From Carcharhinus longimanus (lineage: Eukaryota): a stretch of 64,000 bases of DNA. Shown one piece after another: positions 5,196 through 58,570 of this stretch. The notes under the pieces were generated by a model that made no database searches, had not been told where the DNA came from, and was given only the letters and a program-made list of their open reading frames with translations. Each line of letters begins with the position of its first letter. Position 1 is the stretch's first letter. The DNA is taken from NCBI GenBank assembly GCA_030264375.1, contig JASCQW010000112.1, positions 23,854,162 to 23,918,161 on the forward strand. Reading direction: 5' to 3'. A program made the position numbers and the translations under genes.

Positions 5196-6090
5196 CTNNN
5201 NNNNNNNNNNNNNNNNNNNNNNNNNNNNNNNNNNNNNNNNNNNNNNNNNNNNNNNNNNNNNNNNNNNNNNNNNNNNNNNNNNNNNNNNNNNNNNNNNAGT
5301 ATTACAGTTCACTTGGGGAGTCTGAGTTGCTGTGGCAACTTGGCACTTTATATGTGCATGTTGTAGTTTGGAACGATGGACAGTGATGGCAGAGGAACCA
5401 ACTGTCTTTCGATCACGTGACTGACCAGGAATCTCTCCCTGCTCTTACCAACTGCCATTCATTTATTTTGGAAGAATTTGTAGGTTGATACTGAAATTGC
5501 GTGGTGCCCCTTTTTTGACCATCAAGTCCTGAGGTGAACCTCAAATTCAGAGTTTCTGGCTCAGAGGCAGAGTTGCATCACAAGACCTCATAAAATCCAT
5601 GTAGACTGTGGTGATATGTGCCTGCATGTATTTGTNNNNNNNNNNAGTGCGGAGATTAAAGTGGAATTGGAGGATGGCACAGTCCATAGCACAGTACACA
5701 CAATCACATGACAATTGTCTCTCTGAGAACAATCTAGTTCTAAATGACAATGTATCATTTCTTACTTACGTTTTCTAAAACTATCTCATCAAAAGAATCC
5801 AAAATTAAAGAGTGCAATGTCTTTGATGTTACAAATGCAACATTTCACCCACAACTACCTTTTGTTACCTTCTTGTAATGGGTTGATCCTACAGTGATTC
5901 TCTTAATTTACTTTATCAAGACCCATCATTATTTTGAACAACTCTGTCAAATCCCCCCTTAACTTGCTTGCTTTAACAACAGCAACCCCAGTTTCCCTAG
6001 TCTCTCCACATCGGTGAAGTATTTTGTTCGTGGAACCATTCTAGTAATTCTCCCTGGACCCTCCAACTTGATGTAAAAGTAAAAAAAAGT

Positions 6091-6391
6091 AAAGTTTATT
6101 TATTAGTGTCACAAGTAGGCTTATATTAACACTGCAATGAAGTTACTGTGAAAATACCCTGGTTGCCACACTACAGCGCCTGTCTGGGGACACTGAGGGA
6201 GAATTTAGGCCAGTGCACCTAACCGGCACATCTTTCAGACTGTGGGAGAAAACCTGAGCACCCAGAGGAAACCAATCAGATACGGGGAGAACGTGCAGTC
6301 TCTGCACAGACAGTGACCCAAGCTGGGAATCAAACCCAGATCTCTGGCACTGTGAGGCAGCAGTACTAACCAATGTGCCACTGTGCCGTCC
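6091..6391 (-). mobile_element. HE1-type V-SINE, tail type B, inside a decayed CR1 (~5905-6560)
   Basis: Reverse complement of the same head, central domain and B tail. Confidence 0.9.
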
Positions 6392-7537: not shown

Positions 7538-7713
7538 TCCTAGTCGCCACACTCTGGCACCTGTTCGGGTACACTGAAGGAGAATTTAGCATGGCCAATG
7601 CACCTTACCAGCACATCTTTGGAGTGTGGGAGGAAATCGGAGCACCCAGAGGAAACCCACGCAGCCACAGGGAGAATGTGCAAACTCCACACAGACAGCA
7701 ACCCAAGCCAGGG
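7538..7713 (-). mobile_element. Truncated HE1 type B nested in a short MITE (7434-7730)
   Basis: Reverse-strand central domain and partial tail. Confidence 0.85.
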
Positions 7714-7772
7714 ACAGCAAAATTCCACCCTTTCAGTTGTGACTTAAACACTGAAATATGCATGTCTTGAGC

Positions 7773-8067
7773 GGGCAGCATGGTGGCACATTGATCAGCA
7801 TTGCTGCCTCACAGCGCCAGGGACCCAGGTTCAATTCCTGGCTTGGCTTGCTGCCTGTGTGGAGTTTGTACATTCTCCCTGTGGCTGCGTGGGTTNNNNN
7901 NNNNNCTCCCACACTCCAAAGATATGCTGGTTAGGTGCATTGGCCATGCTAAATTCTCCCTCAGTGTACCCGAACAGGTGCCACAGTGTGGCGACTAGGA
8001 GATTTTCACAGTAACTTCATTGCACTGTTGATGTAAGCGCTCTTATGAGACTGTTAAATAAACTTTA
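7773..8067 (+). mobile_element. HE1-type V-SINE, tail type B
   Basis: GGGCAGCATGGTGGCACA head, box B, B tail. Confidence 0.92.
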
Positions 8068-8918: not shown

Positions 8919-9221
8919 GGCGTCACAGTGGTAAAGTGATTAGCACTGCCGCCTCACAGCGCCAGGGATCTGGGTTCGATTCCCGGCTTGGGTCACTGTC
9001 TGTGCAGAGTCTACACGTTCTCCCCTGTGTCTGCGTGAGTTTCCTCTGGGTGCTCCCCACAATCCGAAAGACATGTTGGTTAGATGCACTGGCCATGCTA
9101 AATTCTCCCTCAGTGTACCTGAACAGACACTGGAGTGTGGCGACTAGAGGATTTTCACACTAACTTCATTGTGGTGTTAATGCAAGCCTACTTGTGACAC
9201 TAATAAATAAACTTAAAACTT
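8919..9221 (+). mobile_element. HE1-type V-SINE, tail type B
   Basis: Full head, central domain, tail AATAAATAAACTTAAAACTT. Confidence 0.92.
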
Positions 9222-10105
9222 GTTTCTAAGCTAAAAACCTGAATGCATTTCAATGGTTGCATCTGTCTTCACTGCTTTCTTGTAACTTGCTTGCAATAAA
9301 TCTAGAAAATACCAAGAACAACAAAAGGCCTACTGTTCTCTGACATGGTACAGGAGATGGTGGTGTGCTGTGACTGCAGCATGTGGGAATCTGTGGAGTG
9401 CACAGCAATCCTGGATAACTGTATCTGCAGTACATGTCTGCAGTTTGCACAACTTCCACTCAGAGTCACTGAACCGGAGTCTGAGTTGTGCACATCACAG
9501 GCCATCAATGAGAAGGAGAGTCATCTGTGTATTTTGTTGCGAGGAGGCAGTCACACCCCTCTGGTTAGTCAGAGCTTTGGAGTTGAGCAATGATCAGGGA
9601 CAGGCAGGTGTGACTGCGAGTCAAGCATGTATGGGGAATTAACATGTAGTGATGGGGAAGCTTCAGCCGCTGACTTTGCCCAAAGGATACAAGGTGTTTG
9701 GTGTTCCATGTGGATGAAGAGGACTGCAGGATGGATGCGCCGACTACCCATGGAACCATGGTGAAGGATGCCATTCAAGTTGGAGATGCAGAGTGGGCGG
9801 AATAGATACTGTTCTCTACAGCCATGACCAGGAGCTCTGAAGTTCCCTACCTGGTGCTGGAGTTCATTTCCTTGAACCCGAGAGGAATTTGAGATCTCCA
9901 TGGGAACCACCAACATAGCAAAACATCATTCCCGTTTCTAACTAAGAGAGTTTTAATGGTTATGTTGCAAATTAAAATTCAGAACATCCAAGGTAATCAT
10001 CTCTGGATTGTTTCATTAGCTACATGGCAATTGGCATAGGATGATGCAGATTAGAGAATTAAAGGTATAGCTCAGAGGATGGTGTGGAAAGAATGGGTTT
10101 CAATT

Positions 10106-15990: not shown

Positions 15991-16312
15991 TATAGAATCA
16001 TAGAATCCCTACAGTTCAGAAGGAGGCTATCTGGCTCATCGAGTCAGTGCCGGCCACAATCCCACCCAGGCCCTATCCCCATAACCCCATGAATTTACCC
16101 TAGTTAGTCCCCCTGACACTAAGGGGCAATTTAGCATGGCCAATCCACCTAACCTGCACATCTTTGGACTGTGGGCGGAAACCGGAGCACCCAGAGGAAA
16201 GCCATGCAAGAATGTGCAAATTCTACACAGATAGTGACCCAAGCTGGGAATCGAACCCGGGTCTCTGGAGCTGTCAGGCAGCAATGCTAACCACTGTGCC
16301 ATTGTGCTGCCC
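15991..16312 (-). mobile_element. HE1-type V-SINE, tail type A
   Basis: CATAGAATCCCTACAG... to ...GTGCTGCCC. Confidence 0.92.
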
Positions 16313-19712: not shown

Positions 19713-19751
19713 TTGGACATCCTCCCCTGAATCAGAACCTAAATACAAAAG
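19713..19751 (+). CDS. Candidate 39-nt frame-preserving small exon, possibly of RTN1 (phase 1: xGHPPLNQNLNTK)
   Basis: Branch-point-like TACTGAC at 19682-19688, tract TATCTCTATCTTTTTTCCAG, donor AAG|GTAACC; length 3n; open in phases 1 and 2. No homology evidence. Confidence 0.4.
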
Positions 19752-25420: not shown

Positions 25421-25775
25421 GTGGTGCAGCACAGCGGCACAATGGTTAGCACTGCTGCCTCACAGCACCATGAACCCAGGTTCACTTCCAACCTTGGCTG
25501 ATTTTGTGTGAAGTTTGCATATTCTCCTTGTGTCTGTTTGGGTTTCCTCCAGGTGCTCCGGTTTCCTCCCACAGTCCAAAGATGTGTAAGTTAGATGGAT
25601 TGGCCATGCTAAATTGCCACTTAGTGTCCAGGGATGCGTGAGTTGGATGGATTAGCCATGGTAAATGTGTGGGGTTATGGGGATAGAGGGTGGATCTGGG
25701 TAAGATACTCTTTTGGAAAGTCAGTACAGACTTGATGGGCCGAATGGCCCCTTTCAGCACTGTAGGGATTCTATG
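25421..25775 (+). mobile_element. HE1-type V-SINE, tail type A
   Basis: Head, central domain, tail CACTGTAGGGATTCTATG. Confidence 0.92.
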
Positions 25776-26489
25776 AAAAGTTTTATATAATTTATCATTA
25801 CCTTCCTGCTATTATGTTCCATGCCTTGAGAATTGAACCTCATCTAAGGGTCAGGAACAAGAGGGGGCTGCTGAGAGGAGGAAGGGGGGTGGGGAGAGGA
25901 GGAAGTGGGGTGGGTAGCGGAGGCCTCATCCTGTCAATCTGCATGACAGGTTTGNNNNNNNNNNNNNNNNNNNNNNNNNNNNNNNNNNNNNNNNNNNNNN
26001 NNNNNNNNNNNNNNNNNNNNNNNNNNNNNNNNNNNNNNNNNNNNNNNNNNNNNNATTGAATGGCGGGGCAGGCTCGAAGGGCTAGATGGCCTACTCCTGC
26101 TCCTATTTCTTATGTTCTTATGTTCTAAAATATTGTTAAAGTTTTAAAATGTGCAAATAACTTATAACATTTTAGATAGCTGATATGTGTTAATCTCTGG
26201 AGCCATTTAGTCCTGTGATTTTTAAACCTGTTGAGAATGTGTTAAGTTTCAGCCAAGAATTTTTTTTAAGTTCTCTTATTCTTGGTTAACAATAAAAGTT
26301 GAATCAATGTTTCATTTCTATTGACCTACATCCTGATAAATAGGAGACCCTGACGTGAAACTAATTCTAATTTAAGGTTCAATTTAACAGTGTCACTTCT
26401 CTGAAGCCTGTCGCATTGTGTATATTTTAAATCTGGTGGGAATTAAATTGGATAACCTCCAAAAATGGGTTTGGGAATCCATCCATGTG

Positions 26490-29189: not shown

Positions 29190-30260
29190 AAGCATCGAGC
29201 ATTTCTTATAGTGCACTAGAGGTGCAAGTCATGTTCAGAATTAAGTAGTGATATCCTATATCCTGCTGACACAGAAAACCCTCCAGATATAAGCTCAGGA
29301 AGGAGTGGGAAGAATAGCCATGATGTGGAGATGCTGGCGTTGGACTGGGCTAGGCACAATAAAAAATCTCACAACACCAGGTTAAATTCCAACAGGTTTA
29401 TTTAGTAGCACAAGCTTTCAGAGCACTGCTCCTTCATCTGACACTCCTCTGATGAAGAAGCAGTGCTCCGAAAGCTCGTGCTACCAAATAAACCTGTTGG
29501 AATTTAACCTGGTGTTGCGAGACTTCTTACTGGGAAGAATAGCAGCAGAGCTTAACGCCTGGAATGTAGCTCCAAGAACATGGATGCAGTGCAGGAGGAG
29601 ACTTAATAATCCCATTTGTGTTGTCAAGGTGAGTGAGCTCGATCTTCAAATGGCGCATCTATAAGCTGAACCCTGAGCCTCATCCACTGTTAAATTGACT
29701 ACATCCCCATTACCTAACTATCAATCAATACACAAGCCTGCAATTCATATGCTAGACGTCACCTTCACAAACTTAGCATGATTACATACCCTGCACCCAC
29801 AGCTGCTGCACACACTGGCACCTATTTAAATATGACAGCCAAATCACCCAGACATATTTTTGGCCTCTCACTGACACTCTCTTTCTTGCTGGAGAAGATG
29901 GCACGTAGGAGGAGACAGCAGGAAAGATACGAAACACCAGCATGCCTCGGCATGCTCTAATCCCCATGGAGGAGACAGTGCTGGCCATCATGGGAAGGGG
30001 CATCATTCAGACTGTAATCACTGATAGTGGTAGGAAATCTCTGTACCTATTCCACCTTCAGTTTCCCCGTCTCCCCCTCGTCCCACAATTTCTTCTGGCT
30101 CACAAATTGCGCCCCTTGCTTTCTTCACTCCCCGTACCACATCCTGACCCTTGCCCCTTCTTCATTTCAGATACACAAGAACTTTGAACCTTTTCAGTCA
30201 GAGGAGGAAGGAGCAGAAGATAGTGAAAATGAAGCAATACTTATATTCTTACACTGACAT
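29190..30260 (+). pseudogene. Decayed Myb/SANT-like DNA-binding gene of a PIF/Harbinger transposon
   Basis: GRIAAELNAWNVAPRTWMQCRRRLNN followed by donor AAG|GTGAGT (~29628); downstream EKMARRRRQQER and LIPMEETVLAIMG segments typical of Harbinger Myb proteins. Confidence 0.65.
29319..29530. mobile_element. Palindromic Penelope-like terminal-repeat insertion with hammerhead cores and a 13-bp TSD
   Basis: ~75-80-bp inverted arms; CTGATGA at 29449, GAAA at 29470; direct repeat TGGGAAGAATAGC at 29306-29318 and 29531-29543. Confidence 0.8.
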
Positions 30261-41432: not shown

Positions 41433-41757
41433 GGGCAGCACGGTGGCACAGTGGTTAGTACTGCTGCCCCACAGCACCAGGGACTCGGGTTCAATTCCTG
41501 ACTTGGGTCACTGTCTGTGCAGAGTCTGCATATTCTCCCCATGTCTGCATGGGTTTTCTCCGGGTGCGCCGGTTTCCTCCCACAGTCCAAAGATGTGTGG
41601 GTTAAATGGATTGACCATGATAAATTGCTCTTTAGTGTCAGTGGGATTAGAGGGGTGTATGCATGGGGTTGCGGGGATAGGGCCTGGGTGGGATTATTGT
41701 CGGTGCAGGCTCCATGGCCTAATGGTGGCCTTCTGTACTGTAGGGATCCTATGATTC
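41433..41757 (+). mobile_element. HE1-type V-SINE, tail type A
   Basis: GGGCAGCACGGTGGCACAGTGGTTAG head to GTAGGGATCCTATGATTC. Confidence 0.93.
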
Positions 41758-42572
41758 AAGAGAGAATGAAGAGAAGGCTGGAAGCGGTTGTAAAGATAAA
41801 AGGTATTAAATGACAACATAAAGATTAGACATCAGAAAAAAATCAAAGTTGGAACAAAAGGAAAAATAAATAGAGATGGGGAATATCTGAAATAAAATTG
41901 GAATAACATTCGTGCCTTAGCATTACAGCTAATCATTTAAGAAGGTAAATGATGAGATTTCAGATGGAGGAATATCAGTAGCTAGCTGGTGAAACATCTG
42001 AGGTATCAGAAAGGTCTTTTTGTTTGACAAAGCTAGCTATACAATGAAAATCTCCTGTCTTTAATACACATCACAATTAGCCCTGTATTTTAACAGTTAA
42101 ATATATTCTGCACTACACTGTCTTTTACTGTTTTAACCATCGGTTGGTCTTCTGTAACACAATCATCTTTGTCGCTGTGCTATTTATTTCACGTGTGTGC
42201 TCATTATTCCTAGGTTTTTTTTATGGCAGAATAGTATTCTAACAGCATTTTGTTTAATATGAAGAGGGGTTTTTTTTTAGCTCTGCTTTGAAAACAGTTA
42301 AGAACAAAAATCATCCTTCATCTTAAAGAAACTTTGTTGTATCAATAGTTTCATACGGCCCTGATACATCACTATAAATGCTACTTCTTCAGTTTACTTG
42401 GGTCAATCTTATTTTAAGGGAGAGCCCCTTCAATAAACCTTCAGTACACATATCTACTTTTTAATCTTGCATAAGGAGCCATTGGGACAAAATTTCAATG
42501 TTGGATTAAATGAAGAATTAAGAGCTATAATCACAATAGTCATTGTTCCATGTTTTTTCGTTTTCTTTTTAG

Positions 42573-43250
42573 AAGTTACAGAAGGATCACTTATTAGCTC
42601 AACAGGTTTTGAAGAGTATAGCCCAATGGTTGGAGCAGCAAGACAAGTTCCAAGCTTTGAGTCTCACTGTATGATCAGCTCAGATTCAGGAATAGAGATG
42701 GCACCAGGAGATTCTATTGACTTGGCCAAATCTTTGGTGGACCCCATAGGGTCTGAGAAGGCAGAAGACCAGAACTATATTGACATGTGCCGTTCTGAAG
42801 AATTGAAAGCCGAGGAGTTATCCAAAACATACTGGGAGGAGAAAATGATGTATTTTGTAGATAATACATCAGCTGACACAGTGGCTTCCCCAGAAAGTCT
42901 GAAAAAGTCAGCTGAGGAGATAAAGTTGATAGAAGAAATGAGCCCCTGTCTGAGTCCTGAGGAACCAACAACGGCACCGTATGTGGAAGAGCCTTCAGAT
43001 GAAGACATTTCAGAGAAATGGGAAATGGAGGACCCCCAGCACAATATTCACAAAATGGATACACGTGCATCGCCAACCCACGTTTTACTCACTGAGATAG
43101 AAACCATTGTAGATCCCAATAGCAGGTGCAAGCCTCAGCACGAACAAGAGACTAAACTGAAACAAGGATCCGATGTAGTGCCAACTGTGACTGTATCAGA
43201 ACCTGACGATGACAGCCCAATCTCCCAAACGCCTACTCCCACAAGCTCAG
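42573..43250 (+). CDS. RTN1: Reticulon-1 long-isoform internal exon (equivalent to mammalian exon 2), 678 nt, phase 1-1
   Basis: Pyrimidine tract and TAG acceptor (42570-42572); donor CAG|GTAACA at 43250/43251; open frame. Motifs SSDSGIEM, YIDM, APYVEE, LLTEIE, DVVPTVTVSEPDDDSP match recalled human RTN1 (SSDSGIEMTP, YIDI, APYIDD, TLTEIE, DTVPTVTVSEPEDDSP). Confidence 0.95.
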
Positions 43251-43953
43251 GTAACAATTGTTATGTGAGTTACTCTAATAGGTTGGTTGTCTGTGTACAC
43301 ATCATTTCAAAACCTGTTTTTTATTCATTAAACTACAGTAATTGTTTTGTGTGCGTATATATGTTGACATTTTATTTAACTTGAACATTTGATTCTTTTT
43401 CCCTTTTTTTGGCTTGTTGATCGATCAGATCTTGACTGTTTGTCAGTCTGTGACTTATTTTATACAACTTACAATGGTATTTTTGTTACTTGTGTGTCTA
43501 TCCTGTTGAGATGGCTGGTCAATTTCACCATCAGGAGAGAGAACGAAATGTCACAAAATGGCTACTGATAGCCCAAGTATGAAAGGACACAAATAAAATG
43601 TGAAATGTAAAGGAGAAACTGTGTGACCCTGTGCTTGCTAACATGAGCTCACAGTGATTGATGCATACTTAGTCAATGCAAATAGATTTTTAAAATACAT
43701 GTTATTTATCTCAACCAGTTACCCTTCCTTCCCTTTCTTTAGTCTTTTTTCCTGTTACCCTCACACTTTCTCTTTAAAAAAAATAAAATTGAATAATGAA
43801 AAAAAACTGTCTGTCTTCCTTTCTCTATTGTTATCTCTCTCTGCTTGTCTTATTCTCTTTTCTCTTTGATTCATAAGTGTTAGAAATTAGACGAGGTGAT
43901 GTTAATCTACTAGATGGCTAGTTAAAACCACGTAGGTTATTTAATGTTTTTTA

Positions 43954-44236
43954 AAGCTTATTTATTAGTGTTGCTAACACTGCAATGAAGTTTCTGTAAA
44001 AATCCCCTAATCATCGCACTCCAGCACCTGTTCAGGTACACTGAGGGAGAATTTAGCATGGCCAATGCACCTAATCAGCACGTCTTTTGGACTGTGGGAG
44101 GAAACCGGAGGAAACTCACACAGATACAGGGAGAACATGCAGACTCCACACAGACAGTAACCCAAGCTGGGAATTGAACTCAAGTCCCTGGCGCTGTGAG
44201 GCAGCAGTGCTAACCATTGTGCCACCGTGCTGTCCC
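43954..44236 (-). mobile_element. HE1-type V-SINE, tail type B
   Basis: Reverse complement of a full element. Confidence 0.92.
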
Positions 44237-45640
44237 CAAACAACCTTGACCATAATTTCTATGCAGAGTTTTGGGCAGATTTAGTTTAATCTAGAGGCTT
44301 GTTAGTTAATTACAGCTGAATTAATGTTTAACTCTGTCCGTTGCTGCCACATTCCAGTTAGTTACCGACTCCATTCTTGGATCGCCAGCTATCAGTGATA
44401 CAATTAATTTCTGGACAAGACCCAGCAGGGATAGTGTCTGTTAACGTATCTGAGCAGATAAACATCTTGAGTCAAAGCATTAAAATACAGGCCAGTGATG
44501 ATAGACACACAAATCTAAGAGGGATTTCATCTTGGACACATCGAATCATGTCCAGATTTTCCAGCTTCTCCTTGCATGGATTTGTGTTGCAGACTCTTGT
44601 CGTTCTATTTTTTTTTCGGCAAAGTGCTTTCTCAATTGCTGTGGGTGTTCCTTTATTTTCAGTGCCAATAAAGAGTGCGCAACAAAACTGTGGTTGGACT
44701 TTCACAACTTCAACCAACTAAATAAAACTCCTCATTTGTGTTAGCAAAAACCAAAACCATCTTTCCAACATGTTTGGTTCACGTTCTCTGGAAATTCTCT
44801 GAGCTTATATTTTTACTTAAGTTTACAAAGGAGAGTGTCTCAGAGAAAAATAGCTTTGCTTCATCTTTTACTTAGATACCCATGAGAAACTCTATAACCT
44901 TTTTTCTGGAAAATCCATTTAGACTCACTACTTTTTTATCCCTTCCTCAATGTTCATGACTTCTGCAAGCTTTTACTTTCCTACCCAGCTTTCCTTCTTC
45001 CATCTTCCCTTCCCTTTGTCTCTGCAAGGTATTGATTCTCTCTTGGGGTGCAGTTCTATTATGCTAGTCCCTTTCTTGTACTATGTATGTGTGAGTATTG
45101 ATAGTGGTTGTTGGTAAAAGATTCAACCATGGATAGTACCACAGCAGGGCCATTGTATCACCCTTCCTTGTCCAATCTCCACATATTTGTAATAATCCTA
45201 AACTTTCATAAGTGTGCATGATATATAGTCTATTATTTTGGCCAAAAAACTGGAGGGACACTGCATCTTGCTTTGATGGGAAAAAGCCATCACTCTAGTG
45301 CTACAATTAATCCAGTCTTTTTGAAAGATCTCATTGATGATGCATGTTTGTTCCCAGAATTGTCTAAAGTAATTTCAGTAAATGTAATAGGAAGTCTGAA
45401 TCATTTTTCTTGATACCTTCATGATATTCAAGCTTTATAGTAATTGATTTTAGCTTGTAAACTACCAATATTCCTGATGATTTTTTAAATAGATTGGCAC
45501 TGGTATCCTTCACTCTCTTTAAAAGTTTGTTACAGTGAATTTCTCATTTCCTGTTGTGTGAAATGGGGAGGGGGTGCAATGCACCATGCAGCATGCCTGG
45601 CTGTTCCAGTTTTTTGTTTGCAAAGTAGCTGAAAAGATAC

Positions 45641-45767
45641 GGGGCAGGAGTTTACGGCCTTGCTCTGGTGAGACCGGAAGTTCCTGCCTGAGATCAATGG
45701 AGATTTCCGTTGTCGGACCCACGCCCGTGTTGATGCCATGGCAGGCGAGTTGATAGAGTTCCGGCCA
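45641..45767. mobile_element. ~130-bp MITE; relatives at 7434-7730, 20571-20690 and 32512-32648
   Basis: Shared GACCGGAA..CCCGCC..GTCAA internal motif and GGC..GATTTTCC-like ends. Confidence 0.5.
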
Positions 45768-46348
45768 TGATATTTTTCAAGATTTTTTTTTAATGCTAAT
45801 GCACTACCCCATGTCCATGTCCACAACAGAATAGAAATGTTCAATTGAATGACATTAGCTTGTCTTTCATTTGAAAAACACATCCCACTGCACTACAATA
45901 ATTAGAATGCATGGAGCTCTAAATTCTGCTTCCTTTTTTTTGCTTCCTGAAACATGCAGGAATCTTCAAGTTAAATACAGCGTACAGTTTTTTTTTAATG
46001 GCTCTTTTTAAAGTTCAAATCAGGGCAATATAAAAGAAAGTTCTAAAATTATAATGTGGTGACCAATCTTTGGGGCTGTGGAATCTTGCAGTTAGAAAAC
46101 AATCTATTATTTCCAGCTTGAAAACCCTGCTTCTATTGTTAAAATTAATGAAGAGCTGCTCCTTTTAAATGCTCTTCTATGCCACTGGGCATGAATGTAA
46201 CATTTAGCGAGACTGTACTGGAAAAAGCATCCAGGACAGGTATAAATTAGCCATTGGGTAATGTACTGTCAAGCACTAGAAATGAACATGTGGCAAAACC
46301 AGCAGTTGAATTCCCTGCTGCACTCTGTGTTTCCAAGCAGGAAGGGTT

Positions 46349-46664
46349 GGGGTGGCATGATGGCACAGTGGTTAGCAGTGCTGCCTCACAGCGCCAGGGA
46401 TCCGGGTTCAATTCCGGCCTTGGGTCACTGTCTGTGTGGAGTTTGCATGTTCTCCCTGCTCTGCATGGGTTTCCTCTGGGTTCTCCAGTTTCCTCCCACA
46501 GTCCAAAGATGTGTGGGTTAGGTGGATTGGCCATGCTAAATTGCCCCTTAATGTCAGGGAGAACTAGCTGGGATAAATACGTGGGGTTATGGGGACAGGG
46601 ATTGTGGTTGGTGCAGACTCGATGGGCCAAATGGCCCCCTTTGGCACTGTAGGGATTCTATGAT
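46349..46664 (+). mobile_element. HE1-type V-SINE, tail type A
   Basis: Full element ending GTAGGGATTCTATGATT. Confidence 0.93.
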
Positions 46665-47033
46665 TTTACAATAACACCTCCATGAAAAGAGGGCAGAAAC
46701 ATTGGATAGAAATGCCATTGCTGGCTTGATCTTGCATGCCTCTCTAGAGACCAGTCAAAGGGAGTTTTAGTAAGGTGTGGTTGCAAGAATGCTTGCCGAT
46801 CATCTTGATGGCTGAACGTTGCAAGGCACTTTTGAAAGGAGAATCTGTTTTAACCTGGATGTATCTCAAGTCTAGCTCTTTAATAATACGACTGAGTTTT
46901 AAAAGTGACAAACCTTAGTAGATGTGATGTTGATCATAAATGAGGTATTACTTAATGTACTATTGCAGCAGCAAAAAGGAAATAACTTTGAGTGCTCACT
47001 GAGCATATTTTCTGTCTGCATTTATGATTGCAG

Positions 47034-47837
47034 AAGAATCTGATTCACAGATTGAAGCTGCTTACCACTTCCTGGACGAGGAGCGCCCCGCTGCTGACAA
47101 GGCTTCAGACAAAACTCAATGTTTTCCTTTAAATGCCACAGAGGAGGAGAGGTCCCTAAGTGCTGCCTTAACAAAAATAGATGACTCTGAGCAGAACTTG
47201 CCAAAGCTACCAGCGACAATATTGGACCTTGAGGCCAGCAGTGCCGAATCTGGAGATTCTGAGATAGAGGTAGTGCCGGATGAGTCACTGTCCGTGGAAG
47301 AAGCTGAAGGTTGCAGCTATATGACATTCAGGCAGGTTGGTGGAACTCCACCTTCTTCTGTTTCTTCGGTCCAGTACAGTATCCTGAGGGAGGAACGCGA
47401 AGCTGAACTCGACAGTGAGCTCATCATTGATCCCTATGACGCTTCGTCAGCATCTGAAGAGAGTCTCCAAAGAGAGCAAGACTCCCCACTGAAATCTAAC
47501 AGCATGGGGAGAGAACCTGACGAAAAAGCCTTAACAATGGACAGCCAGCAAGAATTGGACCTTCAGTCAAGTCGATCAACTTCCTCCTATATTGTCAAAG
47601 GTGCAAGTGGAACAGATGCAGCTACAGCTGAGCCTCCCGCCTCTCTGAATCATTCCGAAGCTTTCATTACCCCCGAGGTAGTGGTTGAAGAACCATCTTC
47701 TGAAGAAGTGTCTGAGGAAACAGCTGGAAAAATAAGTGATAGCAAACCTTCAGACGGAGCCAAGACTGGAAAAGACTTGGAGAGCAGCCAGCCCATTTCT
47801 TCTGAGCGGTTTCTGCTGGTACTAAATAAGAAAACAG
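47034..47837 (+). CDS. RTN1: Reticulon-1 long-isoform internal exon (equivalent to mammalian exon 3), 804 nt, phase 1-1
   Basis: CAG acceptor 47031-47033; donor CAG|GTAATT at 47837/47838. Near-identical to recalled RTN1 motifs EASSAESGDSEIE, QYSILREEREAELDSELII, DASSASEES..REQDSP; ends LNKKT, like the human LNKQK just before the RHD exon. Confidence 0.96.
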
Positions 47838-48519
47838 GTAATTTTAGCCATTACTCTGACCATAGTGATTTATTTTAAACCGCCTTCATGTTTCACTAAT
47901 TGAAAATTTTCTAATCCATTTGTTTTCAACTTCCCTTTTTATGTAGAAGTGTTTTAAAAAAATTGCATGTTCGGCTACTTAATGTTATTGTATGTTTATC
48001 TTTGGTTGAGTTCCAGCCAACTGATTTTTCTCCCCTGCACCATCCCCCACCCCAAATCTAGTACCCTGAGAATTGAAATGTGTTGTATAATAACCAGCAG
48101 CCAGACAAGTGAAGCAAGTTCAGTGAAATGTGAACACCTGAATTATTTATGAGGCAGTGCACTTGTTTTTTGACAAATGGCTGTTCCAGCTTGTGAAAAT
48201 GTTTTGAAAGGTGCAGCTCTGGGGCACACTACATTAATGTGTTGTTATCTCTCTTTCCTGCTATATATCCCTGTAGTCAAAGACTTGAAAGTGGCAAGAG
48301 TAAACCATCCGTTCCTGCCATCTACTGTAATTAGTAAAATGACTGTCAGACTAATTGAATACAAGTGGGGCAGGTATCGATTTGGATCATACATTTAAAC
48401 CGGGTTTTCTAATTTTGGAGAATGTGATTATTTAATTAATTGATTATTTTGAGAATGTGTGATTTTTAACCATTATCAAATAAATAAAAAAGACCTCTCT
48501 CCCTGAACTCTTCTACCCT

Positions 48520-49765
48520 AGCTTGAATAGAGGCAGACCACTCAGGTCCTCCAGCCTGTCCCACCACCTTTCAGTGAGATCATGGCTAATTTGTACCTTA
48601 ACTCTAAGTACTAACCTCTGCTCCATTTCATTTTATTCCCTTGTCCAGCAAAAATCTATCAATTTCTGATTTAATATTATTAATTTTTATGGGAGAGAAT
48701 TCCACACTTTTACCATTCTTTGCATGAAGAAATGTTTCATAACCTCTTTCCTGAAAAAATCTGACTAATTTTAAGGTTAAGCCCATTTGCTCATGACTCC
48801 CACATCAGTGGAAATTTTTCTATTTACACTATTAATTTCACAATATTAAGAACCTCAAATCACCCTGAATTTACTATACTCCAAGGAATATAAGGATGGT
48901 TTATGGAATCTCCCCTCATAATATAATCCTTGGAAACATGATCACATTCTAATGAGTTTGCATTGCACTCCTTCCAAGGTCAAAACGAGATGTGTTACTC
49001 TGAACTGTGCATAGTATTCCAAATGGACTTCTTTGCAAATCTTCCCCCCTTTATGTCCCAGTCTTCTAGTTATAATGACTGACATTCTATTAGCCTTTTT
49101 GATTATTCATTGTTCCTAACCACTACAGTTTAGTGGTCTATGTACACAGACCCCTACATCACTTCAGACCTTCACTCTAATCTGCTTTGTTTTGATCCAT
49201 CTACCCCAGTCTTCCACTCACTTAACCTATCAAGGTCTCTATAGTTTTATGCTCTCATCCACACTACTTACTATATCACTGATGTGTATGTGTTATTGGT
49301 AACCTTGAACATATGGTTCTCTATTGTGTCGCTAAGTCATTAATAAATATGATGAAAAGTTGAGGCTTCCCCACAAATCTTTATAGAGCACTTCCTTCTG
49401 ATTGAAGTATATGCCCATTATGCCTATCTATGCTCTGTTTTCTAATAATCAGTTTAATCACGTTAATTATTTGCTTTCCATTCCATGAGCTTTGATTTTA
49501 TTGAGCAGTCTGTTATGAGGTTCCTTAGCAAATGCCTTGTGGAGGTTATATAAATGATATTCATGGATATTCTCCTATCTGCTATTGTAGTTATTTCCTT
49601 AAAAAAAAATTAGGTTCATTAGACGTGACTTACCCTTTCCCAATCTATGTTGGTTTTCTCCAAACAGCTGAAATTTCTCAAAGCCTCATCCACTCTGTCC
49701 TTAATTATAGATTCCAATAACTTGCCACAGCGGATGTTAGATTAGCAAGTCCATAATTTCCGGGT
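48520..49765 (-). mobile_element. Old decayed CR1
   Basis: Degenerate CR1 tail and RT sequence on the reverse strand. Confidence 0.6.
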
Positions 49766-50990
49766 TGAAGTGCACTGTGTCTGTCTAGACCTATACAGGC
49801 AGAGATTTCCTGGCCTCGATGTTATACCCTTGGCAAAGATCTGACGGGGCTTCATCCCTTAGCAGGGTCTTTTGCCAGCAAAAGTGAGAAAAAAGCTGAT
49901 GGTTGTTTTGGAATGAAGAATCTGGTGTGTGTGCTTTATCTTTAGGATCCTCTTTGTCATTGTCTAATCTGAGGCAGCTGAGGATGGCAGGAATTTTCAT
50001 ATGTAAACCTCACACCTACTTCTTGAATTGCCTAAGGGCCAAAGGGACAGGGAAGTGAGGTGAGGAGCGATGATGTGTCACACTTCTCCTGTAAATTGGA
50101 TCTTCATCTTTAGAAGTTGCATATTATGCTCCACCTTTTGTAAAGATTCAGAAATTCTAGGGTGATGTAGAGATCTAGCTGAAACAACTAATTCTGAGGA
50201 TTATACAGTGGAATGAGAATTCCTCAGAAATAAACATCCAGAAAAGGGGCAGCTTGATATTGTGTACAGTGATTCCTCTTAATGTGAAGCAAAACTATTG
50301 CTCCTCTATACCCATGATTTAACTTTGTGGAATTATCAGATATTAGTAATTGAAATCTGATTGAATTAATCTAGCTGCAACAATAATGCAATGAGACAGT
50401 TCAGAAATTACACTGTGTTATAACCATACGACTCTATTTATATACTTCTAAATTATGTATTTGAATTGCTGGGAACCTCTGTTCATAACAGCTTTTTTCC
50501 ATTGGGGGTCTACTCCTGTTGGTTCTTTACTTACAAAATGCATGACTTCATATTTCTTCACAGTAAAAAGATCTTTCTCAATCTGTTAGTGAGCTTTTGT
50601 TTCATCAGGCAGTTTCAATATCATGTTCTCGACGCCCAAGTACAAGTAGTTATCGAGGATAGAATGGACCAAGCACGAACCATTAGGTTACACCATTCCT
50701 AGCCATTCTCCAACACACATATTTATTGTGATGAAACTATTAAGTTACCTGAGTTATGTAGTTATGGCCTTGAAATGTAGTGGACAAAGCAGTTGGATAG
50801 TGATGATGTAAGGTATCATTTTTAGACTATTATCTCATTAAATTTTAAACAAAAGTGAAATCATAGTTGCTGGATAACAATTTATAGTTTTAGTATATCC
50901 AGGATCCTTAGCAAATTTTACATAGTGCAAATTTCTGCTGGCATTTACAGGGCAATAATAATGCTCTTTACATGTGACCTTTCTTCTTGG

Positions 50991-51310
50991 AATCATAGAA
51001 TCCCTACAGTGCAGGAGGAGACCATTTGGCCCATCAAGTCTGCACTGACCACAATCTCACCCAGGCCCTATTCCCATAACCTAACCTATTTACCTTGCTA
51101 ATCCTCTTGACACTAAGGTCAGTTTAGCATGGCCAGTCAACCTAACCCACACATCTTGGGACTATGAGAGGAAATCGAAGCACCTGGAGGAAACCCACGC
51201 AGACACAGGGAGAATGTGCAAACTCCACACAGATAGTGACCCAAGACCAGAATTGAACCTGAGTCCCTGGCACTGTGAGGCAGCAGTGCTAACCACTGTG
51301 CCACCGTGCC
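50991..51310 (-). mobile_element. HE1-type V-SINE, tail type A
   Basis: AATCATAGAATCCCTACAGTGCAG ... CCACCGTGCC. Confidence 0.93.
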
Positions 51311-51334
51311 ATTCAGTAGTTAGCACCGCTTTTT

Positions 51335-52856: not shown

Positions 52857-53169
52857 ATGATGTGGAAATGTCGACGTTGGTTTGGGATGGGTACAGTAAG
52901 AAGTCTCTCAACACCAGANNNNNNNNNNNNNNNNNNNNNNNNNNNNNNNNNNNNNNNNNNNNNNNNNNNNNNNNNNNNNNNNNNNNNNNNNNNNNNNNNN
53001 NNNNNNNNNNNNNNNNNNTGAAGTCCAACAGGTTTATTTGGTATCACGAGCGTTTGGAGTGCTGCCCCTTCATCAGGTGAGTCACCTGATGAAAGAGCAG
53101 TGCTCCAAAAGCACGTGATACCAAATAAACCTGTTGGACTTTAACCTGGTGCTGTGAGACTTCTTACTG
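52857..53169. mobile_element. Palindromic Penelope-like insertion (gapped) with hammerhead remnants
   Basis: Same family as 29319; centre CATCAGGTGAGTCACCTGATG; imperfect flanking repeat TATTTACTGCT / TATTTACTACT. Confidence 0.8.
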
Positions 53170-55062: not shown

Positions 55063-55370
55063 ATAGAAACCCTACGTTGCAGAAGGAGGCCATTCGGCCC
55101 ATCAAGTCTGCACCAACAACAATCCCACCCAGGCCCTATCCCCATAATCCCACATATTTACCCCACTAATTTATGCATCCCAGGACACTAAAGGGTAAAT
55201 TAGCATGGCCAGTGCACCTAACCAACACGTCTTTGGACTGTGGGAGGAAATCTGAGCACCCAGAGACAGGGAGAATGTGCAAACTCCACACACACAGTGA
55301 ACACAAGCCGGAAATTGAACCCAGGTCCCTGGAGATGTGAGGCAGCAGTGCTAACCACTGTGCCACATCC
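55063..55370 (-). mobile_element. HE1-type V-SINE, tail type A
   Basis: Reverse complement of a full element. Confidence 0.9.
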
Positions 55371-55659: not shown

Positions 55660-56091
55660 TTGCAGAGGTTTCCTTTAATTCGGAACATATTTTGACATAG
55701 AATCATAGAGGTTTACAGCATGGAAATAGACCCTTCGGCCCAACTTTTTTTTAAACCCTTAAACTAATCCCAATTGCCTGCATTTGGCTCATATCCCTTT
55801 ATAGCCATCTTACTCATATAGGATCTCCAACCAAAACCTTGCTTAAAAGCTTACTAGAGATAATATTCAAAGGGTTGTTCAACTGAGCTTTATCATTTGC
55901 AAATCTAGATTGGATTTCTTCAAACATCCAGTAAGATCGACTGAGTGCAAGAACTAAATGTTCAGGCCATTTCCATATGACACATTAGTGCCCACACTAA
56001 TGCTGCCACCTTCAGCCATTGGTTTAATTTATTCTATGGGGGGAGATGAACAGACATCCACCTGATAATATTGAAGTTTGAGCACACATTG

Positions 56092-56412
56092 GGGCAGCAC
56101 GGTGGCACAGTGATTAACACTGTTGTCTCACAATGCCAGGGACCTGGGTTCAAATCCAGCCTCGAGTCACTGTCTGTGTGGAGTTTGCACGTTCTCCCCG
56201 TGTCTGCATGGGTTTCCTCTGGATTCTCCAGTTTCCTCCTACAGTCCAGAGATGTGCCGGTTAGGTTGATTGGCCGTACTAAATTGACCCAAGTGTCAGA
56301 GGGATTACCAGGGTAAATTTGTGGGGTTACAGGAGTAAGATCTGCGTGGGATTGTGGTCGGTACAGACTCGATGGGCTGAATGGCGGCCTCCTGTCCTGT
56401 AGGGATTCTATG
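56092..56412 (+). mobile_element. HE1-type V-SINE, tail type A
   Basis: GGGCAGCACGGTGGCACAG ... GTAGGGATTCTATG. Confidence 0.92.
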
Positions 56413-56974: not shown

Positions 56975-58570
56975 CATGAAAGTGCAGTTGGAAGGGCCTT
57001 GTATGTGATCGGCATGGTGGGGAAAGTTAGTGAAGATAAATGAAGTGGGGACCCAAAAGGGTGGGCTTAGTATTTCCCGTTGTGGGAGCATCTAGGACCA
57101 GAGGGTATAATCTCGGAGTAAGGGGTCACCCATTGAATACAGTCATAAGTCTCACAACACTTGGTTAAAGTCCAACAGGTTTATTTGGTAGCAAAAGCCA
57201 CTAGCTTTTGGAGCGCTCACTGCTCCTTCATCAGGTGAGTGGGATTTCAGTTCACAAACAGGGTATATATAGACACAAACTCAATTTACAAAATAATGGT
57301 TGGAATATGAGTCTTTACAGATTATCAAATCTTAAAGATACAGACAATATGAGTGGCGAGTGGGTTAAGCACAGGTTAAAGAGATGTGTATTGTCTCCAG
57401 CAGGGACAGTTAGTGAGATTTTGCAAGCTCAGGCAAGTCATAGGGGTTACGTTAACCTGGTGTCGTGACACTTCTTACTAGATGCTCCCACAAGGGGAAA
57501 TACTGACCCCACCCTTTTGGGTCCCCACTTCACTTATCTTCACTAACTTTCCCCACCATGCCAACCACATACAAGGCCCTTCCAACTGCACTTCCATACC
57601 CCAGTCCAATGCCAGCATCTCCACATCATGGTGATCCATCATCAATTTCTTCTCTCAGAGGGTAGTGATTCTGCAGAGGGCTGTAGAAGATGTGTCATTA
57701 AGTATGTTCAAGACTGAGATGGACTGATTTTTAATCAGTAAGGGAATGAAAGGTTAGGAGGATAAAGCAGGAAAGTGGAGTTGAGGATTATTGCTTCAGA
57801 TTAGTCATGATCTCATTGAAAGGGTGAAGCAGATTTGATGAGCCAATTGGACTATTTCTGCTTCCATGTTGTATAGTCTTATGCTCCAAAGTTGGGTCCT
57901 GTGGATCAAATGCATGGTGCTGGCTGGCCAAGGGAATGTTCAGTTGCAGGGCAGAGTTTGATTGGCAGTGGGGATAGTTCTAGTTTGAGGTAGGAACATT
58001 CAGTGGCCACATGGTGCAGGTCACAGGCTCCAATGGAATCATTAAGGATGATGGGTGGAGGGTCTAGGATTTGAGGAAGAATCTTGATGAGAAGGAGGGT
58101 AAAAAGATGGCATGTCCACTTCCACAATGGACTACAGAGGGAATGCTTACTATAATGTTGTGAGAGTCAAGGGTGAAGGGGACAAAGTTGGAGATGATGA
58201 GGGGAGAGAGGGAGGAGAGTCAGGGGTTTCAATATAAGGATCATTTGCGCACTCTTTCCCACCATGTCCAAAAACTAGCTTGTAGATGCCAGGAGTGGAT
58301 GAAGCAAGTATCTCAATAGGACATGGGAGCAGAATAATCCATTTAGCCCATTTGGCCACTCACCTGATGAAGGAGCAGCGAGTGCTCCAAAAGCTAGTAG
58401 CTAGTACCAAATAAACATGTTGGACTTTAACCTAGTGTTGTGAGACTTCTGACTGTGTTCAATGGACAGTTCAAGGGACTGTGTTCCCTTACTCTGAGAC
58501 TATATCCTCTGGTCCTAGATGCTCCCACAAGGGGAAATACTAAGCCCACCCTTTTGGGTCCCCACTTCAT
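56975..58570. repeat. Rearranged Penelope-like insertion in a CR1 3' end, with two inverted duplications of flanking DNA
   Basis: 56975-57094 is inverted at 57479-57600; ~57040-57241 is inverted at ~58358-58570. Confidence 0.8.

Follow-up and report, generated by a model that had tools for sequence, protein, structure and literature searches.

Do inverted repeats around two large coding exons of a shark reticulon gene give rise to circular RNAs with an endless reading frame? The question is raised by a 64-kb window of Carcharhinus longimanus (the window being the whole stretch of DNA analysed), in which an initial annotation had noticed four SINE copies of alternating orientation around the two exons, and had proposed that they could produce circles of 678, 804 or 1482 nt. 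The locus is one more candidate of a well-known kind: exons situated between inverted SINEs.

The gene is RTN1, as had been annotated. The product of the 678-nt exon (42573-43250, + strand) is 96% identical to reticulon-1a of Mustelus asterias, that of the 804-nt exon (47034-47837, + strand) 97%, and the named top matches of both exons are reticulon-1. Splice ends (AG/GT) and frame check agree with the annotation of two stop-free phase 1-1 exons with lengths divisible by three, each open solely in the frame that begins at base 3. A Pfam search of the two exons gave no domain match; protein P0001 matches PF02453, the C-terminal reticulon domain. Downstream exons of 208, 139, 70 and 59 nt follow on the same contig, consistent with splicing to the reticulon domain. 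The introns are long: 22.8 kb precede the 678-nt exon, and the downstream exons start 63.9 kb after the 804-nt exon.

All three internal N-terminal exons of RTN1a (39, 678 and 804 nt) are in phase 1-1, as is the giant exon of one paralogue, and of 17 cartilaginous-fish proteins, which are isoform models from databases, 5 lack the 678-nt exon without loss of frame. The species with annotated skipping are a hexanchiform shark, a carpet shark and two batoids, so that skipping is old and widespread. Judged from these sequences, the symmetric phases are a long-established trait of the gene that goes with cassette splicing; they are found also in other sharks and rays and in the paralogue, and are no property tied to circles. 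An open rolling frame is given by construction in any circle of a coding exon with a length divisible by three. The candidate circles would contain 226, 268 and 494 open codons, of which 9, 3 and 12, respectively, are AUG, and would encode 22% Asp+Glu; the sequence features of an infinite ORF (3n length, one stop-free frame, in-frame AUG) are all present, and come automatically with a symmetric coding exon. The "endless ORF" is thus not the distinctive feature it had been taken for. Every back-splice junction does read G|AA, as predicted, because CAG closes and AAG opens both exons; however, the identical codon is formed when the two exons are joined in linear order, and we rejected the junction as a special feature.

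A blastn catalogue of the repeats confirmed their positions and their order across the exons (+,-,+,-). Copy A (41433-41757, +) has a tRNA-type head containing box A and box B and a CR1-like tail; its branch length is 0.11 (rank 27 of 67), and it precedes the 678-nt exon by 815 nt. Copy B (43954-44235, -; rank 10 of 40) lies 703 nt after this exon. Copy B belongs to a second subfamily with a deviating 3' tail, and pairs with the other copies along about 200 nt only. Copy C (46349-46665, +) is situated 368 nt before the 804-nt exon and copy D (50990-51311, -) 3152 nt after it. The four copies are each 7.5-11% diverged and pairwise 79-81% alike; of the 67 copies ranked, C (branch length 0.075) has the lowest divergence and D the fifth lowest. 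Purifying selection could also produce such ranks. A further copy of the family, Z (25426-25776, +), and copy A are the sole family members in the intron before the 678-nt exon, both on the + strand. Two more copies follow beyond D. Copy E (55063-55366, -) could likewise pair with C or A, and is a close partner of copy F (56091-56412, +). Copy F, in turn, competes for D within the intron (316 nt at 79%, at a distance of 4.8 kb).

The name HE1, under which the repeats had been annotated, fits as far as the tRNA-type head is concerned: the Pol III box A is present in all four copies, and the box B pattern in three. Like HE1 (V-SINE) of sharks and rays, the family is a very abundant tRNA-type SINE of about 320 nt, here in a shark close to Mustelus, and its tail may be shared with LINE-like fragments; it has two tail subfamilies, and HE1 is a provisional label. 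HE1 is not known from mammals; its partner LINE is HER1 (PMC3747384; PMC2911107). The window contains a decayed ORF of LINE-like character, which had no Pfam match. Where tails occur outside SINEs, they follow sequence similar to this ORF in 8 of 35 cases for the A type and in 1 of 9 for the B type. An Rfam search of the window gave no match.

Each exon, and the pair of exons, is indeed enclosed by a complementary SINE pair. The inverted pairs score 172 bits for the 678-nt loop (A:B), 305 bits for the 804-nt loop (C:D) and 286 bits for the 1482-nt loop (A:D), and reverse-complementary repeats are thus found in both flanking introns of all three. Duplex energies are predicted at -354 to -489 kcal/mol, stronger than the family medians of -282 and -334 kcal/mol, and the longest stems without a mismatch measure 21-23 bp. 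The two middle copies can compete within their intron, as had been noted (B:C, 2.1 kb apart), and so can D and F. The two nestings, A:B with C:D and A:D with B:C, are nearly equal in energy (-843 vs -856 kcal/mol), which is expected because copy similarity is additive; we therefore rejected the idea of a designed switch.

Is this layout more than chance? The family is dense, with one copy of at least 150 nt per 4.9 kb in 864 kb of sequence after exclusion of N, and neighbouring copies have the same orientation in 80 cases and opposite orientations in 87. Among 43 four-copy runs within 10 kb five alternate, including the run at RTN1a, where 12.5% are expected. Orientation statistics, which the initial annotation had asked for, thus place alternation at chance level, in agreement with its caution that the layout may be accidental. 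Closeness combined with pairing strength, by contrast, is uncommon per locus: the C:D and A:D scores lie in the top 0.2-2.2% of random placements, while the 172 bits of A:B, the weakest pair, are equalled by 4.5% of 2243 placements. The full tight layout, a pattern defined after it had been sighted, was found in 4 of 2193 template placements, and in 25 of 2193 at any distance. This null consists of random positions instead of real exons, and the fetched stretches contain 20% N as compared to 2% in the window, so that a bias in either direction is possible. Twelve of the 18 inverted matches of at least 150 bits in the window bracket no exon, two of them with as much as 627 and 300 bits.

If the circles had a function, selection on the pairing partners would be expected, and with it a similarity beyond that predicted by their individual divergence. 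No such excess was found: the residuals after accounting for each copy's own divergence are -0.001 for A-D, -0.001 for C-D and -0.006 for the non-pairing direct pair A-C (sd 0.018). Inverted neighbours appeared more alike than direct ones by their means (-0.014 vs -0.0025), an effect of a few outliers in one block that disappears in a rank test (p=0.53). On these grounds we rejected both selection on particular pairs and gene conversion among partners. Likewise, mammalian repeat dimers at shared circle loci are reported to degrade like others (PMC8516420). As weak controls, we found no large exon in the 80 kb upstream of the paralogue C61, nor at C180, and no inverted match in the flanks of C187 (29-45% N).

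Circles from reticulon genes are known in mammals. For human RTN1, a single-exon circle of 750 nt (chr14:60193637|60194386) is listed in 3 of 7 RNase R-treated brain samples (PMC10231643, Supplementary Table 9). It derives from the same gene and from one exon with a length divisible by three, and this length fits the mammalian block of 238-252 residues aligned to the 804-nt shark exon. The latter is thus likely the orthologue of the human exon, as inferred from gene, length and the aligned matches, which came from mammals other than human. In contrast to the human circle, which is seen in reads, the shark circle is a prediction, and the repeats that flank the human exon cannot be of the shark family. 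The human listing suggests that such a circle would be independent of this SINE family. The exon 2-3 circles of the paralogue RTN4, which the initial annotation had mentioned for mammals, are indeed published: circRtn4/circRTN4 is brain-expressed and measures 2418 nt in mouse and 2457 nt in human (PMC6690939; PMC13714255). They share with the shark exons their place in the N-terminal part of a reticulon, a 3n length, a stop-free rolling frame, a phase-1 junction and an acidic product without reticulon domain, but they are validated circles of a paralogue, with translation shown from plasmids, and have other exon sizes and another repeat family. More generally, dimers of reverse-complementary SINEs, among them Alu, B1 and ID, promote the formation of exonic circRNAs (PMC8516420). 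There too, inverted copies of an abundant SINE occupy both flanking introns and alternative dimers compete, and that study likewise found no selection on dimers; however, its circles are enriched for the youngest elements, unlike the diverged shark copies. Other reports comprise one pig-brain RTN1 circle with 3 reads despite high expression of the host gene, an RTN1 circle of 487 nt in one literature table, and circRTN1 sponge studies cited in thyroid-cancer reviews. Our literature searches surfaced no RTN1 circle from a shark or another fish, a point on which circRNA databases may already be informative; the circRNA study of a bamboo shark deals with liver only (PMC7759564), and RTN1 is not among the rows listed from the supplements of PMC8516420 and PMC8819885.

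The reading that we favour, and hold to be fairly probable, is that ordinary phase 1-1 coding exons of the long RTN1a isoform lie amid old SINEs that likely landed by chance, with a minor by-product circle as a likely consequence; it calls for neither selection nor translation. The four copies, which belong to an abundant tRNA-derived family, would likely have landed independently, and pairing between them across the exons is predicted for the pre-mRNA. A:B would presumably form first during transcription and leave C free for D, therefore favouring the single-exon loops over the 1482-nt loop. Back-splicing between the long introns would then proceed at a low rate, yielding a minor circle most likely from the 804-nt exon. 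With the human RTN1 listing and circRtn4 as precedents, a circle from RTN1 exons in the shark is plausible. Of the SINE-driven circles originally proposed, the flanking pairs stand, being stronger than at most random places, whereas the frames are not specific to circles and the partners show no extra similarity.

Alternatively, the SINEs could be inert passengers, and RTN1a would form no detectable circle in the shark. The limited similarity of the copies with their short perfect stems, the competing intronic pairs B:C and D:F and the scarcity of reads in pig brain agree with this, but the predicted duplex energies, the high percentiles of the pairing scores and the human listing speak against it, and we consider it unlikely. 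The main effect could also be on linear splicing: A:B would loop out the 678-nt cassette and raise its in-frame skipping, B:C would compete, and the isoform ratio would be tuned. A and B are close to this exon, A has no opposite-strand family copy in its own intron, five database isoforms do skip the exon, and in C. elegans reverse-complementary matches are reported to promote both skipping and back-splicing (PMC8330042). However, the skipped isoforms are models, skipping is old and widespread, from hexanchiform and carpet sharks to batoids, and A:B is the weakest pair, which makes this explanation rather improbable.

Least credible are the readings in which the circles have a function of their own. 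Selected shark-specific SINE pairs might yield abundant RTN1 circles, translated in a rolling manner into acidic, disordered tandem multimers without membrane anchor. The long open frames with their AUGs and acidic composition, the near-equal nestings, the unusual intactness of C and D, and the multimers and junction peptide from plasmid-expressed mouse circRtn4 (PMC6690939) would fit; but coding and cassette symmetry account for the open frame, and additive similarity for the equal nesting energies; the partners lack pair-specific similarity, and the evidence for rolling translation of circRtn4 comes from overexpression, a setting flagged for artefacts in a review (PMC11724312). We regard this as very improbable, and would give just as little credence to its broadest form: that circles of long N-terminal exons are conserved from sharks to humans in reticulons (RTN1, RTN4) and re-supplied by the abundant SINE of each lineage, the shark circles being translated into soluble acidic tandem repeats, with a switch between A:B/C:D and A:D/B:C choosing among 678, 804 and 1482 nt. 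A circle that is translated and can be switched would be of greater consequence than a by-product, but nothing here supports such a step.

The locus offers an inexpensive way to learn whether the RTN1 circle listed in human brain also occurs in a cartilaginous fish with unrelated repeats. Sharks and humans separated about 450 million years ago; if the shark circle exists, the same circle would be found across this time span, which bears on whether shared circles are selected or are convergent by-products.

The shortest of the three symmetric exons had been overlooked by the initial annotation: the alternatively used 39-nt microexon (19713-19751, + strand), phase 1-1 with AG/GT ends, was located by a tblastn search with those shark and ray isoforms in which it is included.

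Four SINE copies surround the two RTN1a exons, namely A (41433-41757, +), B (43954-44235, -), C (46349-46665, +) and D (50990-51311, -), which lie 815, 703, 368 and 3152 nt, respectively, from the nearest exon end. Our repeat catalogue bears out this alternating layout, which the initial annotation had described correctly. A tRNA-type box A is found in all four copies and a box B in three, and HE1, which the literature describes as a V-SINE derived from a tRNA in sharks and rays (PMC3747384, PMC2911107), is a candidate name that, judged from that description, fits their tRNA-type heads. Copy B represents a second subfamily, which has a different tail, and aligns with A, C and D across only ~200 nt. 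This subfamily, with head and core as in the first and an AT-rich tail, accounts for 40 of the 122 near-full copies sampled and occurs in the window at 1043-1333, 6081-6391, 7539-8065, 8919-9225 and 43954-44235 (B itself).

The exons of 678 nt (42573-43250, +) and 804 nt (47034-47837, +) have AG/GT ends, lengths divisible by three and a single open frame, and are 96% and 97% identical, respectively, to Mustelus asterias reticulon-1a. Because both start with AAG and end with CAG, any back-splice junction reads G|AA; bounds, lengths, frame and junction are all as first annotated. The endless reading frame is no special feature, since every symmetric coding exon has an open rolling frame when circularised. 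Exon 1 of RTN1a ends in phase 1, 30.6 kb upstream of the window start on the same contig, and a 39-nt microexon and both larger exons are phase 1-1; none of the four reticulon-domain exons measured (208, 139, 70 and 59 nt), which start 63.9 kb downstream of the 804-nt exon, is a multiple of three. Mouse Rtn1 shares this organisation, its introns at the 5' end being long and its domain encoded by exons 4-9, and is expressed chiefly in neurons (PMC5522448). The 678-nt block is absent in five of 120 matched proteins (P0007, P0008, P0009, P0011, P0013), all belonging to the 17 cartilaginous-fish proteins, and in these isoforms, which are database models, the upstream exon joins the 804-nt block in frame. 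A reticulon paralogue in the shark genome (G000:C187, ~4003600-4006750, -; stretches L023-L024) likewise possesses a giant phase 1-1 N-terminal exon of ~3.1 kb, a length that spans an N run. Given these phases, the skipping and the paralogue, the frame symmetry is therefore an old trait permitting in-frame skipping. The 3' part of the giant exon consists of tandem copies of a 10-residue unit rich in Pro, Ala and Glu, and a domain exon follows 8 kb downstream. The microexon (19713-19751, +), missed by the initial annotation, is carried by only part of the shark and ray isoforms, and the aligned tetrapod and coelacanth RTN1 proteins show nothing corresponding to it at that place in the alignment; it is likewise flanked by inverted SINEs (15995-16312, -; 25426-25776, +; 202 bits).

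The caveat that dense HE1 copies might produce the layout by chance appears justified. Ten blocks (1,064,000 bases, 863,916 non-N) contained 227 SINE copies, 177 of them at least 150 nt long, or one per 4.9 kb. Neighbours were on the same strand 80 times and on opposite strands 87 times, and alternating four-copy runs occurred at about the expected 12.5% (15/147 overall; 5/43 within 10 kb, including this locus). A template of 678-3783-804 nt was slid over the sample in 100-nt steps, and 2193 of ~7,800 non-independent placements were kept, those overlapping a copy or N, or without a flanking copy, being dropped. In 58% of these, the closest outer copies lay in opposite orientation; 25 placements showed the full layout, and four showed it with close outer copies. 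With flanks of 3.5 kb, the 305 bits of C:D, enclosing the 804-nt exon, were reached in 0.2% of 2233 placements and the 286 bits of A:D, enclosing both exons (1482 nt), in 0.2% of 2087; with flanks of 10 kb the shares were 0.7% of 1692 and 2.2% of 1594, respectively. The 172 bits of A:B, enclosing the 678-nt exon, were reached in 4.5% of 2243. This null is only approximate, because N makes up 20% of the fetched stretches (against 2% of the window) and 34 of the 212 copies touch N. Inverted matches of at least 100 bits occurred in 12-15% (3.5-kb flanks) and 55-59% (10-kb flanks) of placements, and a coarser run agrees. These scores favour the initial annotation and make the locus, on sequence grounds, a strong candidate for cross-exon pairing. 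The pattern is nevertheless one picked after the fact, and a genome with an assumed ~200,000 exons would contain hundreds to thousands of such loci at these rates. Inverted matches of at least 150 bits and less than 12 kb apart number 18 in the window; six enclose an exon, and the remaining 12, none of which does, include a SINE pair of 300 bits and a 705-nt pair of 627 bits. This strongest pair (21826-22515/24094-24783; 80%, 1.6 kb apart) is wholly intronic, with no known exon between its arms.

Partners among A-D share 79-81% identity, compared with family medians of 75-76%, and their alignments score in the 96th-99th percentile. The energies predicted for the duplexes are -354 (A:B), -489 (C:D), -485 (A:D) and -371 kcal/mol (intronic B:C), the medians of 60 sampled pairs each being -282 and -334. 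These values are explained by how intact the individual copies are (among 67 A-type copies C is first, D fifth and A 27th; B is tenth of 40), and in C and D this intactness could reflect younger age or constraint. With one branch length fitted per copy and the cross-subfamily B pairs left out, residuals were -0.001 for A-D and C-D and -0.006 for same-strand A-C (sd 0.018), and among neighbours at most 10 kb apart 22 inverted pairs did not differ from 26 direct ones (p=0.53). Selected SINE control finds no support in these values. The longest perfect stems measure 21-23 bp, and the two nestings, A:B/C:D and A:D/B:C, total -843 and -856 kcal/mol, which is what additivity would give. Since transcription reaches B 2.2 kb beyond A but before C, the A:B duplex would be the first to form, with C then free for D, and single-exon loops would be favoured; a downstream intronic copy, F (56091-56412, +), may compete for D.

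Circles of this kind are already known. The RTN4 exon 2-3 circle named in the initial annotation is indeed published (PMC6690939, PMC13714255), with a mouse form of 2418 nt and a human one of 2457 nt (PMC13714255). Among 11,873 circles tabulated for human entorhinal cortex (seven samples treated with RNase R), three rows are RTN1: one of 750 nt (chr14:60193637|60194386) in 3/7 samples and two in the domain-exon region, in one sample each; none is a two-exon or upstream-exon circle (PMC10231643). The block aligned to the shark 804-nt exon comprises 238-252 residues in three placental-mammal proteins, with matching boundaries, and the human 750-nt exon is therefore likely its orthologue. A pig cortex table lists a single RTN1 circle, of unspecified exons, with three reads (PMC4635978), and 4,558 circles in bamboo-shark liver indicate that sharks make them (PMC7759564). 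In our literature search no RTN1 circle from a shark or another fish came up, and the listed RNA runs are assembled contigs, a form that drops rare transcripts.

Taken together, a chance SINE layout that likely yields a minor by-product circle of RTN1a exons is the probable explanation, and the locus is a good candidate for a circle of known kind with a likely human counterpart. In five mammals, circles at shared loci accompany young species-specific repeats, and selection has left no trace in the dimers of these repeats (PMC8516420). That the SINEs are inert seems unlikely given the predicted pairing. Control of exon skipping by the SINE pairs is more doubtful still; in its favour, inverted matches can promote skipping besides back-splicing (PMC8330042). 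Functional rolling translation is very improbable. Mouse circRtn4 has a stop-free circular frame, and its plasmid expression gave monomers, multimers and a junction peptide (PMC6690939); a review including it cautions on overexpression artefacts (PMC11724312). For RTN1a, neither selected control nor an endless protein is supported.

Elsewhere in the window, inverted arms of 124 nt (56972-57095/57478-57601; 94% complementary, with 382 nt and part of another repeat between them) look like a recent local inversion or duplication, and a further short dispersed repeat family, at most 90% alike, occurs at 29449-29532, 53086-53169 and 58372-58455. In the block G000:C180:10900001-11000000 (L032-L041) SINE density is twice the average, and a few neighbouring copies resemble each other far more closely than expected (residuals -0.08 to -0.12), which suggests local duplication or a separate subfamily.
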